This document shows, piece by piece, positions 280 through 30,645 of a stretch of DNA of 64,000 nucleotides. The notes beneath the pieces are model-generated. The model did not search any database. It was not told the DNA's origin and saw only the letters and a program-made list of their open reading frames with translations. Source of the stretch: Escherichia phage JES2013; the sequence record KC690136; one strand, given 5' to 3'. Position 1 is the stretch's first letter, and each line of letters starts with the position of its first letter. Made by a program: the position numbers and the translations under genes.

Positions 280-716
280 TAATACCTCCAGACATCAACA
301 ACGATAGAATCTTTCATGTCGAACATAAAGACCCCTTTATCACCTTTCGCCCAAATCTGGTTGTTCCAGAACACACCAGCGGTGAGCCCGTTCAGACCTT
401 CGAAAATGACAATATCTCCACGCTGAACCTGTTTAGGAGTATCCAGCCGAGTCATAAAGAGATCAAAAATAGTAGGCAGGTGTGTAGTTTTGAAACGAAG
501 CATGCACCATCTTTTGCTTTCCAACTCTGTTTTATACGTTCCTTCGAAGTTGGAAAGAAAATCTGTTCCGTATTGGGCATCAACACACTTAGCCGCAAAG
601 GTGCAACAATCGTGGAATCCCCATTCAAAAGGTATGGTGGCCTCTTCGTCAAACACTTTCCACAATCTTTCTTGCCAATCCACTAAACGAGGGTGTGTGC
701 TCATTAAACCTCCCAA
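279..716 (-). CDS. hypothetical tail-region protein
   Basis: 145-aa ORF in co-directional tail gene block, tightly packed with neighbours. Confidence 0.5.
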   Translation of the reverse strand: MGGLMSTHPRLVDWQERLWKVFDEEATIPFEWGFHDCCTFAAKCVDAQYGTDFLSNFEGTYKTELESKRWCMLRFKTTHLPTIFDLFMTRLDTPKQVQRGDIVIFEGLNGLTAGVFWNNQIWAKGDKGVFMFDMKDSIVVDVWRY

Positions 717-1270
717 ATGATCGGGCGGCTCGCCACCTGATCCACATATTTAAAAAATCTGTCATTATCGTTTCTTGAGCTGTGGCTTTCCTCCGTGTAC
801 CGATAAGGAAAACCTCTTAACCAACTATTGAAGATGGAAGAGATGGATATGGACAAAGCACTATTCTCCCCTGTCTGAATAGCCATATCTGTTATAAGGC
901 CGTCAAACAAGCCATTAGTTGTGACAGGCAGACCATTCTCCATAGCGGTAATGTACAACGTGGCACGACAACCGGAATACTCCGTCTTCAGAAGATCACC
1001 CACATACTTAGGATCAAACCCGTTCAATGTCGCTACCACAGATCCGAAGTTGGTGGCATCTTTCTCAGACACAGCAGTTAACGTTGCTGATCCACCTATC
1101 CCTATAAAATGTTGCCCCTCAATTACTACAACACCAGTGCCTGAGCACACCCTGACAGTTCCTGTCGGTAGCTCCAGCTTTGCAGCAATTAAGATCTCAA
1201 CACCATCAAGCTCCAGCTTTTCAAGAAATAAATTATCTAATGGCGCTCTGATCATCTTAGAAATCCTCAA
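704..1270 (-). CDS. hypothetical tail-region protein
   Basis: 188-aa ORF, overlaps neighbours by a few nt in operon-like arrangement. Confidence 0.5.
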   Translation of the reverse strand: MRISKMIRAPLDNLFLEKLELDGVEILIAAKLELPTGTVRVCSGTGVVVIEGQHFIGIGGSATLTAVSEKDATNFGSVVATLNGFDPKYVGDLLKTEYSGCRATLYITAMENGLPVTTNGLFDGLITDMAIQTGENSALSISISSIFNSWLRGFPYRYTEESHSSRNDNDRFFKYVDQVASRPIIWEV

Positions 1271-29325: not shown

Positions 29326-29402
29326 TGGTCTCCACGGAGTGATTCGAACACTCGACCTCCTGATCCCAAATCAGGCGCTCTACCAAGCTGAGCTACGCGG
29401 AG
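29326..29402 (-). tRNA. tRNA-Pro (anticodon UGG)
   Basis: Manual cloverleaf: acceptor CTCCGCG/CGTGGAG, D-arm GCTC/GAGC, anticodon loop TTTGGGA, T-arm GAGTG TTCGAAT CACTC, encoded CCA. Confidence 0.7.
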
Positions 29403-29413
29403 TATTCATTATT

Positions 29414-29488
29414 TGGTGGCCCTGGGTGGAATTGAACCACCGTCTGGCGATTATGAGTCGCTTGCTTGAACCTTCCAGCTACAGGGCC
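29414..29488 (-). tRNA. tRNA-Met (anticodon CAU; could be initiator, elongator or Ile2)
   Basis: Manual fold: acceptor GGCCCTG/CAGGGCC, anticodon loop CTCATAA, T-arm GGTGG TTCAATT CCACC, encoded CCA. Confidence 0.65.
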
Positions 29489-29489
29489 A

Positions 29490-29565
29490 TGGTGCTGATG
29501 GCAGGACTTGAACCTGCAACCTATTGATTACAAATCAATTGCACTACCAATTGTGCTACATCAGC
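29490..29565 (-). tRNA. tRNA-Thr (anticodon UGU)
   Basis: Manual fold: acceptor GCTGATG/CATCAGC, D-arm GCAC/GTGC, anticodon loop TTTGTAA, T-arm GCAGG TTCAAGT CCTGC, encoded CCA. Confidence 0.65.
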
Positions 29566-29570
29566 AAAAA

Positions 29571-29661
29571 GGTGCTAGGTGATGGAGTCGAACCACCCGA
29601 ATCGCAATGATAACAGATTTACAGTCTGCCCCGCTACCCCTACGGAATTAACTCACCTAAA
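29571..29661 (-). tRNA. tRNA-Tyr-like (anticodon GUA), atypical 5' half; 5' boundary uncertain
   Basis: Anticodon arm GCAGA CTGTAAA TCTGT identical in core to bacterial tRNA-Tyr; canonical T-arm GGTGG TTCGACT CCATC; long variable region; acceptor/D-arm pairing not resolved by hand. Confidence 0.45.
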
Positions 29662-29787
29662 TACTAATATTTAAATTCTTTTTAAAATAGCTAGTGTTCT
29701 CACCACTAACTATGAGGTATCGGTAAAGTGGTTACCGCCACTTGCCGAAGATTTACTCTGCTAAAGTAAGCTACATTAAAAAGAACT

Positions 29788-29862
29788 TGGCACCCCGTAC
29801 TGGACTCGAACCAGTGTCAACGGCTTAGAAGGCCGCTGCTTTATCCACTAAGCTAACAGGGC
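29788..29862 (-). tRNA. tRNA-Arg (anticodon UCU)
   Basis: Manual fold: acceptor GCCCTGT/ACGGGGT with G-U pairs, anticodon loop CTTCTAA, T-arm ACTGG TTCGAGT CCAGT, encoded CCA. Confidence 0.65.
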
Positions 29863-29920
29863 ACTGGGTGGCTTTCTTTTACACCTTAGCCGCCAGAAAA
29901 GGTGGGAGACCATGTTTACA

Positions 29921-29949
29921 ATATTACACTGTTAAGCAAAGTTTGTCAA
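29921..29949 (-). promoter_or_regulatory. sigma70-like promoter for tRNA cluster
   Basis: Minus-strand TTGACA (29949-29944), 17-nt spacer, TAATAT (29926-29921), ~55 nt upstream of tRNA-Arg 5' end. Confidence 0.55.
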
Positions 29950-30297: not shown

Positions 30298-30645
30298 GTT
30301 TCCTCCATTATCACGTGATAGGTGGATTTTATCACAGCAAATACTGATTGTCAAGTTCGCCGCAGGGTGGTGTTCCCTGCGACTTGTCCAGCGTCCTGGA
30401 CCAGCAAGACCCAACAAGTGGGTTTTCCAGCTATACCCATTACCGCGCTCAGGCTCGACCTTATTACAGGTTGGCTGGGGTCACATCGTCATGTGCTGGC
30501 TGCCCCTACCATTTTAAGTGTGGTGCACTATCAAGCCCTCTAAGGGGAACTCAGTCTTCTCCGAACCCTGTTTCAAAGCATCCGGAGATAAAGCCATCAA
30601 ATTCATCTTTAAATTGGATATTCATCATGATACACGAAAACAACC

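Follow-up and report, generated by a model that had tools for sequence, protein, structure and literature searches.

The minus-strand tRNA cluster of Escherichia phage JES2013 very probably contains two further elements, a hybrid tRNA pseudogene created by a 403-bp deletion and a gene for a structured RNA of ~116 nt in the 'spacer' that precedes it (Table 1). The window analysed here is a stretch of 64,000 nt from sequence record KC690136, which E. coli O157 typing phage 4, an rV5-like Vequintavirus, matches at 100% identity. A preliminary description of the sequence had read the region as a minus-strand operon of five tRNAs. Four of these lie where they had been placed, all four being called by ARAGORN and scoring 60–79.5 bits on the Rfam tRNA model (E ≤ 2.5e-12), but the fifth, a Tyr-like gene, was not upheld. 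ARAGORN made four calls and none over the Tyr-like region, which scored 22.9 bits on Rfam RF00005 against a gathering score of 29 bits, aligned only with model positions 10–63 and had no acceptor stem in that alignment. This is the outcome that the description itself had named as refuting its proposal.

The promoter that had been placed ahead of the operon was recovered by a consensus scan as TTGACA-17-TAATAT on the minus strand with 10 of 12 matches. It follows the upstream ORF's stop codon directly, ~60 nt ahead of tRNA-Arg, and comparison of annotations shows that the ECML-10 record labels the identical sequence as a sigma-70-type promoter, an activity that is predicted. Both the cluster and its order are as in rV5 and other Vequintavirus genomes (PMC3606486), and relatives carry identical flanking ORFs and an identical promoter. 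Phage rV5 has been reported to carry Arg(AGA), Tyr(TAC), Thr(ACA), Met(ATG), Pro(CCA) and Ser tRNAs (Kropinski et al. 2013, PMC3606486). Typing phage 4 differs from rV5 in lacking the Tyr, Ser and Lys-like tRNAs through a private 403-bp deletion, and its Tyr allele is of the phAPEC8 type and accompanied by the structured RNA, whereas rV5 has the rV5/ime-type allele.

Table 1. Positions of the features of the tRNA cluster in the window, in order of transcription
Feature	Position	Strand	Basis or details
Sigma-70-type promoter-like site	29949-29921	-	TTGACA 29949-29944, 17-nt spacer, TAATAT 29926-29921
tRNA-Arg(UCU), CCA encoded	29788..29862	-	ARAGORN; Rfam tRNA 67.8 bits
Structured RNA element, ~116 nt	29673..29788	-	Fold, homologs, covariation
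P1 outer helix	29788-29776 pairs 29685-29673	-	Part of structured RNA element
P1 inner helix	29774-29770 pairs 29691-29687	-	Part of structured RNA element
Hairpin P2	29769-29753	-	Part of structured RNA element
Hairpin P3	29748-29720	-	Part of structured RNA element
Hairpin P4	29708-29692	-	Part of structured RNA element
A/T-rich linker, 15 nt, element to G1 of Tyr-derived segment	29658..29672	-	Read from sequence
Tyr-like hybrid region	29657-29571	-	tRNA-Tyr anticodon arm, GTA at 29622-29620, and canonical T-arm
tRNA-Tyr(GUA)-derived segment	29579..29657	-	79 nt identical to intact Pr121LW and Phapecoctavirus tRNA-Tyr
Crossover overlap TCCATCAC	29586-29579	-	Within Tyr-derived segment
Lys-like tRNA-???-derived 3' segment: CTAGCACC and TTTTT trailer	29566..29578	-	Suffix identity; alignment with relatives
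tRNA-Thr(UGU)	29490..29565	-	ARAGORN; Rfam 79.5 bits
CAU-anticodon tRNA, software label Met	29414..29488	-	ARAGORN; Rfam 60 bits
tRNA-Pro(UGG)	29326..29402	-	ARAGORN; Rfam 66.4 bits

The individual features that had been noticed in the Tyr-like gene are all present, namely an anticodon arm of the bacterial tRNA-Tyr type, a canonical T-arm, extra nucleotides, an encoded CC instead of CCA, and an acceptor that cannot be paired. The T-arm has a TTCGA loop, and the long variable arm of bacterial tRNA-Tyr is present too. What changes is the location of the anomaly, which had been assigned to a non-canonical 5' half. The Tyr-derived segment comprises a 5' acceptor strand (GGTGAGT), D-arm, anticodon arm, long variable arm, T-stem and T-loop, with 3 extra nt past position 9, and its arms are identical to those of an intact allele (GCAGA-CTGTAAA-TCTGT, GGTGG-TTCGACT-CCATC and ATC-ATTGC-GAT). 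This 5' half, extra nucleotides included, is identical at every nucleotide to the intact tRNA-Tyr allele of relatives, which in Pr121LW scores 39.0 bits across RF00005 positions 1–71. Judged by these identities, the extra nucleotides are real and inherited from an intact phage tRNA-Tyr lineage, which is also found in Spc35-type T5-like phages. The foreign portion is the 3' acceptor strand, brought in from another gene by the 403-bp deletion. The segment derived from the Lys-like tRNA-??? ends in CC and supplies a strand, ACCTAGC, that is not complementary to GGTGAGT, and no 7-bp acceptor stem is formed. The fold of the region is no better than that of shuffled sequence (z = +0.34 and -0.79). 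A weak alternative pairing, TAGGTGA/TCACCTA, can be drawn at the cost of the T-stem.

Alignment with Pr121LW and ime shows a single clean gap with edges inside two T-arms. A 79-nt prefix is intact Tyr, a 21-nt suffix (TCCATCACCTAGCACCTTTTT, identical in ime and ECML-10) is tRNA-???, and 403 bp are gone between them. Compared with ECML-10, the closest intact relative, there is an exact 8-nt overlap at the junction, inside an 18/19-nt match. The missing segment holds the complementary 3' acceptor strand of Tyr, tRNA-Ser(UGA) and the 5' part, amounting to most, of the Lys-like tRNA-???; ECML-10 and Pr121LW keep the full cluster, including Tyr, Ser(UGA) and tRNA-???. The two halves of the hybrid therefore match two genes that are intact and separate in close relatives, with sequence shared at the junction, and the junction itself occurs in one of 50,697 phage records (KP869102.1). 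On these grounds the short form is the derived and not the ancestral state.

We propose that the ancestral cluster ran Arg, structured RNA, Tyr, Ser(UGA), Lys-like tRNA-???, Thr, CAU, Pro, and that recombination or replication slippage between the near-identical T-arms of Tyr (GGTGGTTCGACTCCATCAC) and tRNA-??? (GGTGGTTCGATTCCATCAC) removed 403 bp. The product would be the 5' acceptor strand, D-, anticodon, variable and T-arms of Tyr joined to the 3' acceptor strand of tRNA-???. Since the two acceptor strands are non-complementary, the hybrid RNA would have no acceptor/T minihelix and would be open neither to maturation by RNase P nor to charging. We therefore regard the hybrid, as judged from its predicted structure, as dead and not as a working tRNA, and the fusion and deletion together imply that the phage has lost tRNA-Tyr, tRNA-Ser(UGA) and the Lys-like tRNA. 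The parent gene was under selection, because the substitutions that distinguish intact Tyr alleles compensate for one another in the acceptor, anticodon and variable stems. Hybrid or deleted genes are known to arise when adjacent tRNA genes recombine, as in deletions of the T4 tRNA cluster and in unequal crossing-over at the tandem tyrT genes of E. coli. Here too the breakpoints lie in short stretches of near-identity (the T-arms), the product is chimeric and the genes in between are lost. Unlike in those cases, the two fused genes encode different tRNA species, whose acceptor strands do not complement each other, and the product would therefore be dead rather than a working hybrid.

Two other readings of the Tyr-like gene were weighed. 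The deletion might be an artefact of assembly or sequencing, with the real phage having the full cluster; the junction does come from a single record, a short-read assembly described as a partial genome. We consider this very improbable. The typing phages were assembled with Velvet at k = 90–120 (PMC4429339), far above the length of the exact junction repeats, and repeats of 8–10 nt therefore cannot have caused a collapse. The same paper counts three differences in tRNA genes among the rV5-like typing phages (PMC4429339), and phage V18, in which the same two genes are fused independently at a different breakpoint, provides a natural deletion of the same kind. Also very improbable is the initial proposal of a functional tRNA-Tyr of unusual architecture, for which the intact anticodon arm, variable arm and T-loop, the presence of A73 and a 7–9-bp pairing of the 5' flank with the foreign 3' end, drawable by hand, could be cited. 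One such possibility shifts the register, which gives an acceptor stem of 9 bp (UUUAGGUGA/UCACCUAGC) and leaves 3 bp for the T-stem. Against a functional gene stand the sub-threshold and purely local Rfam match, the ARAGORN result and the shuffled-level fold. Furthermore, because the 3' strand has been traced to another gene and the hybrid form is in no other record, the shifted-register pairing is best regarded as an accident and not as selected. We accordingly rejected an allo-tRNA-like 9/3 cloverleaf, which would combine this accidental pairing with a 6–7-nt connector and a T-stem of only 3 bp.

The second part of our reading concerns the 125-bp spacer between tRNA-Arg and the hybrid pseudogene, in which a hairpin had been seen and for which a degenerate tRNA remnant or a small RNA had been suggested. 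The hairpin is real and corresponds to helix P3, and covariation supports the suggestion of a small RNA. The first base of the element is the last A of the tRNA-Arg CCA, and its single-sequence fold is more stable than shuffled sequence (z = -4.0 to -4.1). In an alignment of 15 sequences, 99.7% of cells at 40 consensus pairs are paired, and seven pairs show compensatory change on both sides (26 cells). The covariation values were matched by 0 or 1 of 500 shuffles, statistics that overstate independence because the aligned sequences share descent, and no covarying pairs were left when partners were slid by -3 to +3. The model R1 scored 136.5 bits on the minus strand versus 46.8 on the plus strand and the element has invariant G-U pairs (columns 9:183 and 84:90), which together identify the tRNA-sense strand as the one that folds. 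We rejected the idea that the element is a YrlA (Y-RNA-like) RNA or a tmRNA, as the Rfam matches to these families fell only over the true tRNAs and far below threshold.

Given its position in a tRNA operon downstream of a promoter-like site, the structured RNA would be transcribed together with the tRNAs. Its 5' end abuts the upstream CCA and its 3' end is, in relatives, the RNase P site of the next tRNA, and for this reason tRNA-processing enzymes would be expected to release it as a small RNA with its ends locked in an 18-bp helix.

Homologs of the element are found in 175 phage records from four phage lineages, with identity down to 72%, and a 100%-identical copy has been exchanged between two phage subfamilies; none of the phage records inspected labels it as an RNA gene. 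A pattern scan of viral contigs yielded only four additional loci, all full-length R1 matches, and there is one copy per window or locus. The element is directly flanked by tRNAs in Stephanstirmvirinae and lies directly ahead of tRNA-Tyr in T5-like phages. Insertions in the copies of ESCO8, VivaForever and pEC-M2929 lie between helices. The 15-nt linker is present in Pr121LW-type Vequintavirus and some Phapecoctavirus, and absent from the T5-like and Justusliebigvirus copies. Absence of the whole element from rV5 and ime indicates that it is dispensable. In Spc35 the element starts ~14 nt past an extended -10 (TTGCTC-17-TGaTATAAT, read by eye; a promoter scan gave nothing at its threshold), and on account of this distance it would be the leader of the tRNA-Tyr transcript.

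By analogy of design, we place the element in the same class as the stable RNAs of T5 and T4. The T5 record NC_005859 annotates RNAIV (103 nt) and RNAIII (106 nt) as 'stable RNA with unknown functions'. Like the element, both lie among tRNA genes on the same strand and show three hairpins at a junction that a long terminal helix closes; in RNAIV the likeness extends to an A/U-rich outer helix of 13 bp, a single bulged base, UGUAG/CUACA as the inner helix and the sequence of the helices. The interior sequences are, by contrast, unrelated, and the R1 score of RNAIV (18.9 bits) is borderline, with E ~0.03 on a rough calibration, and comes from the terminal helix alone. Some T5-like phages hold both the element and a T5 stable RNA at different sites, and the two are therefore at best distant paralogues. 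The T4 species 1 and 2 RNAs (rnaC and rnaD, 119–139 nt) occupy the same place, directly downstream of tRNA-Arg(UCU) in the cluster, and rnaC differs in having, on our reading of its sequence, a T-arm-like GGTTCGAATCC motif that is not present in the element. Homology to rnaC/rnaD was rejected (best R1 score 8.2 bits, E ~1), as was homology to the syntenic stretch upstream of tRNA-Tyr in T5, which is structured (z = -6.2) but rod-like and scores 11.1 bits with R1. In the literature available to us, a search for the T5 and T4 stable RNAs returned reference-list entries only.

Our favoured guess is that the element acts in trans or in a processing-related role, and that it and phage tRNA-Tyr move together as a cassette. 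Alternatively, it may act only in cis, as a processing or insulating module that is degraded instead of accumulating as a working small RNA, for example an RNase III/RNase E entry site or a 5' leader aiding the folding of the odd tRNA-Tyr and its cleavage by RNase P. We think this unlikely, though it deserves serious consideration. The element always immediately precedes a co-oriented tRNA, the Spc35 arrangement (as read by eye) makes it a leader, the annotated mature ends of T5 RNAIV lie inside the outer A/U helix and thus imply cleavage there, and PMC4810235 lists a reference on a role of RNase III in the synthesis of T4 tRNAs. However, the covarying conservation of three internal hairpins and a junction exceeds the needs of a cleavage site, the tRNA that follows is dead in the window, and the annotation of the T5 counterparts is that of stable RNAs. 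A relic without function, whether a degenerate tRNA, a MITE-like insertion bounded by terminal inverted repeats or something else, is highly improbable, for although the element sits among tRNA genes, folds around a four-way junction like that of a cloverleaf and behaves as a ~128-bp presence/absence indel among Vequintavirus genomes, Rfam 15 (4227 models) gave no match of any family to 29662–29787 at E ≤ 10, T-loop and anticodon-loop signatures are missing, and single-copy occurrence, its own fold conserved in four lineages, compensatory changes and strand-specific G-U pairs all argue against a relic.

A more specific version of the cassette idea is speculative and, on balance, rather doubtful. 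The element may found an undescribed family of phage small RNAs, excised from tRNA precursors, that forms a mobile cassette with a non-canonical tRNA-Tyr (4–5-nt acceptor/D-stem connector), has spread across rV5-like, phAPEC8-like, phi92-like and T5-like phages, and may work with that tRNA against host defences that target tRNAs, retron-Eco7 being one example. Counter-defence is a known role of phage tRNA-Tyr and tRNA-Lys (PMC11555353, PMC11464382), and the tRNA-Tyr of the T5 family counters the PtuAB of retron-Eco7 (Azam et al. 2024, PMC11555353). The intact parent of the hybrid is a phage tRNA-Tyr(GUA) of the lineage shared with Spc35-type T5-like phages, whereas the gene is broken in typing phage 4. 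If the cassette and defence reading were true, the tRNA part would be knocked out naturally in typing phage 4, and this loss might be one reason for the distinct lytic spectrum of the phage.

Of the two elements, the pseudogene is an ordinary one, and the small RNA is moderately interesting and the more important. An RNA supported by covariation, like the T4 and T5 stable RNAs in design and present in at least 175 genomes, offers a tractable comparative handle on the function of the class. The pseudogene is mainly a correction, in that annotations and tRNA counts for typing phage 4 should give four tRNAs, but as a natural triple deletion (Tyr, Ser-UGA and Lys-like) the phage may also be useful for probing the roles of phage tRNAs. 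Finally, the label of one of the four remaining tRNAs probably needs revision. The CAU-anticodon gene had been described as tRNA-Met, but in a comparison with 5,345 E. coli genomes the best matches listed were all annotated as tRNA-Ile, at 76–82% identity, and it is therefore probably a lysidine-modified tRNA-Ile2 that reads AUA.

Over the whole window ARAGORN called four tRNA genes, each of them minus-strand, with Rfam tRNA scores of 60-79.5 bits (see table). The preliminary description had proposed a five-tRNA operon, but the Tyr-like member was not called and reached 22.9 bits on the Rfam model, under the 29-bit gathering score; this combination is what that description had named as refuting its reading. 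The match was limited to model positions 10-63 and hence excludes the acceptor stem. The CAU tRNA, named Met by the software, is probably a lysidine-modified tRNA-Ile2 reading AUA: among the matches listed from 5,345 E. coli genomes, the best are annotated tRNA-Ile (76-82% identity), and its acceptor begins with GGCCC, as does that of ileX.

Features of the tRNA cluster and its surroundings in the window
Feature	Position	Strand	Basis
tRNA-Pro-UGG	29326-29402	-	ARAGORN and Rfam tRNA model
CAU tRNA	29414-29488	-	ARAGORN (called Met) and Rfam tRNA model
tRNA-Thr-UGU	29490-29565	-	ARAGORN and Rfam tRNA model
Tyr-like gene	29657-29571	-	
Spacer element	29673-29788	-	
tRNA-Arg-UCU	29788-29862	-	ARAGORN and Rfam tRNA model
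Promoter-like site	29949-29921		TTGACA-17-TAATAT, 10/12 matches
Promoter-like site	30326-30354	-	TTGACA-17-TAAAAT with upstream TG, 11/12 matches

Close relatives align to the Tyr-like region in two pieces spanning ~400 extra bases, and carry annotated tRNA-Tyr and tRNA-Ser genes. Pr121LW and ECML-10 have the order Arg, 128-bp spacer, Tyr, Ser(UGA), tRNA-??? (a Lys-like gene), Thr, CAU, Pro, as does ime without the spacer, and alignment of three versions of the cluster leaves a single clean gap in the window, where 403 bp are absent. From G1 (29657) the window equals Pr121LW tRNA-Tyr over 79 nt, to CCATCAC in the T-arm, while the 21 nt that run up to tRNA-Thr (TCCATCACCTAGCACCTTTTT) exactly match the tRNA-??? 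terminus of ime and ECML-10. The near-identity of the two T-arms (Tyr GGTGGTTCGACTCCATCAC; tRNA-??? GGTGGTTCGATTCCATCAC) places the crossover in an exact 8-nt overlap, TCCATCAC (29586-29579), within an 18/19-nt match. As the 5' acceptor strand (GGTGAGT) derives from Tyr and the 3' strand (ACCTAGC-A-CC) from tRNA-???, each oddity raised in the preliminary description is explained: the stem cannot pair, an apparent 1:72 mismatch appears in a shifted register, and the gene ends in CC because tRNA-??? ends in ACC then T in all relatives, whereas CCA is encoded in the intact Tyr gene. That allele scored 39.0 bits over the full-length tRNA model, and the hybrid's fold is no more stable than that of shuffled sequences (z = +0.34 and -0.79). 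The Tyr-like gene is very probably a deletion hybrid, and the supposed unusual fifth tRNA is an ordinary lineage-specific pseudogene of fully traceable origin.

Over the 1.3 kb round the hybrid, KP869102.1 (Escherichia coli O157 typing phage 4; Vequintavirus, rV5-like) is 100% identical to the window and many further Vequintavirus genomes are 97-99.5% identical. Among 50,697 phage records only KP869102.1 contains the junction as a continuous match; the other seven records covering the whole junction query match in two pieces spanning ~554 bp. That the 403-bp deletion is an artefact is highly improbable, because Velvet assembly of the typing phages used k = 90-120, far above the exact repeat length at the junction, so that repeats of 8-10 nt cannot collapse the assembly; three tRNA gene differences have been reported among members of the rV5-like group (PMC4429339). 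An independent Tyr/tRNA-??? fusion is present in phage V18, on an ime-type Tyr allele and broken in the variable arm, which indicates that this interval has collapsed at least twice. The V18 cluster (L025, the V18 locus, 580-961 (-)) appears to be decaying: the tRNA-Pro anticodon arm is altered (GAGATAAACCATTGGGATCAGG) and the phage's own annotation no longer calls a tRNA there.

A non-canonical 5' half had been described for this gene; the extra nucleotides are real but were inherited from the intact allele, which the Rfam alignment resolves into acceptor stem, UA, an insertion auu and a normal D-arm (CCGU AGGGGUA GCGG). A connector of 4-5 nt instead of 2 between acceptor and D-stem characterizes a tRNA-Tyr lineage shared by Spc35-type T5-like phages, ime, Pr121LW and Phapecoctavirus. 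Compensatory differences between alleles in the acceptor, anticodon and variable-arm stems argue that the parent gene was under selection as a tRNA. Software disagrees on this intact gene: ARAGORN made no call in Pr121LW or PNJ1809, and some records label it a tRNA pseudogene.

We infer that the window phage lacks tRNA-Tyr, tRNA-Ser(UGA) and the Lys-like tRNA, a loss that could alter the range of hosts lysed. The tRNAs reported for rV5 are Arg, Tyr, Thr, Met, Pro and Ser (PMC3606486). The PtuAB effector of retron-Eco7 depletes host tRNA-Tyr, and a T5-family tRNA-Tyr rescues phage (PMC11555353). The Lys-like gene, of which the window retains the 3' end alone (29566-29578), is 98-99 nt long in relatives (L003 2072-2170 (-) and L002 2072-2170 (-), loci from two of their genomes); its anticodon stem has 4 bp and carries the loop UUUUUAA (UUU), its variable arm is ~27 nt long, and it ends in ACC with CCA unencoded. 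It scored 35.5 bits on the Rfam tRNA model; records label it tRNA-OTHER, tRNA-???(atcc) or tRNA-Lys, and it could be a tRNA-Lys variant or decoy with a bearing on PrrC- or PARIS-type defences. Long inverted repeats (GTTGACC...GGTCAAC, CCGG...CCGG; L003 2171-2269 (-)) occur in the 99-nt tRNA-Ser/tRNA-??? spacer of relatives, which the window has lost and which may, from these repeats, be another structured RNA.

A more interesting outcome than the pseudogene is the 126-nt stretch from tRNA-Arg to the hybrid, where the earlier suspicion of a small RNA led to a conserved, structured element, annotated as an RNA gene in none of the inspected records and without an Rfam match at E <= 10. It folds far better than shuffled sequence (z = -4.0) and has homologs in 175 phage records (72-100% identity): in a subset of Vequintavirus genomes, between tRNA-Ser and tRNA-Tyr in Phapecoctavirus, between tRNA-Ser and tRNA-Lys, then Tyr, in Justusliebigvirus, and immediately 5' of tRNA-Tyr in Spc35-type T5-like phages. 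RNAalifold, applied to a structure-blind alignment of 15 copies, gave a 40-pair consensus: an outer, A/U-rich helix of 13 bp and an inner one of 5 bp, separated by a one-base bulge, plus three hairpins. In it 99.7% of alignment cells are paired. Seven pairs change on both sides (26 cells), values reached by 0 or 1 of 500 shuffles, and no covarying pairs remained in this alignment when partners were slid by 1-3 columns. Invariant G-U pairs, together with the scores of R1, a model of the element (136.5 bits for the minus strand against 46.8 for the plus), assign the structure to the tRNA-sense strand. Insertions fall between helices (8 nt in VivaForever and pEC-M2929), and 50 nt between the inner P1 helix and P2 in the Justusliebigvirus ESCO8 (L017 250-300) show that this site tolerates large insertions. 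We consider the spacer likely to encode a genuine structured RNA.

The element begins on the A of the CCA that ends the upstream tRNA, and its last paired base lies 0-2 nt ahead of the next tRNA in the T5-like, phAPEC8 and Justusliebigvirus copies. As its ends abut the flanking tRNAs, cleavage by RNase P and by the enzymes that mature tRNA 3' ends would free a small RNA sealed in an 18-bp helix. In Spc35 the element starts ~14 nt past an extended -10 (TGaTATAAT, read by eye) and would there be the leader of the tRNA-Tyr transcript.

Eight stable RNAs 'of unknown function' are listed among the tRNA genes of the curated T5 record, of which RNAIV was the best R1 match in that region (18.9 bits, E ~0.03). 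Its layout is that of the element, a 13-bp outer A/U helix being followed by a bulge, an inner UGUAGG/CCUACA helix and three hairpins; the mature ends in its annotation fall at the inner helix, suggesting that the outer one is removed. In RNAIII, likewise, three hairpins are closed by a 20-bp terminal helix. On these likenesses we would class the element, a possible member of the RNAIV family, among the phage stable RNAs within tRNA clusters, a known class to which it would be a new addition. T4 rnaD and rnaC lie directly after tRNA-Arg, a positional likeness, but have no similarity to R1. In T5 (L024 11426-11545 (-)), ~110 unannotated nt from promoter P14a to tRNA-Tyr are strongly structured (z = -6.2, rod-like), with no detectable relation to the window element.

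The element's 3' end plus tRNA-Tyr to the T-arm, the 112-nt part of the cassette covered by this comparison, is shared at 100% identity by Vequintavirus (Vequintavirinae) and many Phapecoctavirus (Stephanstirmvirinae) genomes (window 29579-29690 (-) versus relatives' loci L004/L005 1897-2121), which points to recent horizontal exchange across subfamilies. The rV5- and ime-type genomes have a different Tyr allele and no element.

The promoter proposed for the cluster was borne out as a promoter-like site, and in ECML-10 the identical sequence carries a sigma-70-type promoter annotation. A second, better-matching promoter-like site precedes a 339-bp ORF that is itself ahead of the tRNA cluster. 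The stretch from this site to the tRNAs showed no terminator-like site on the minus strand, so transcription starting further upstream may read through into the tRNAs as well.
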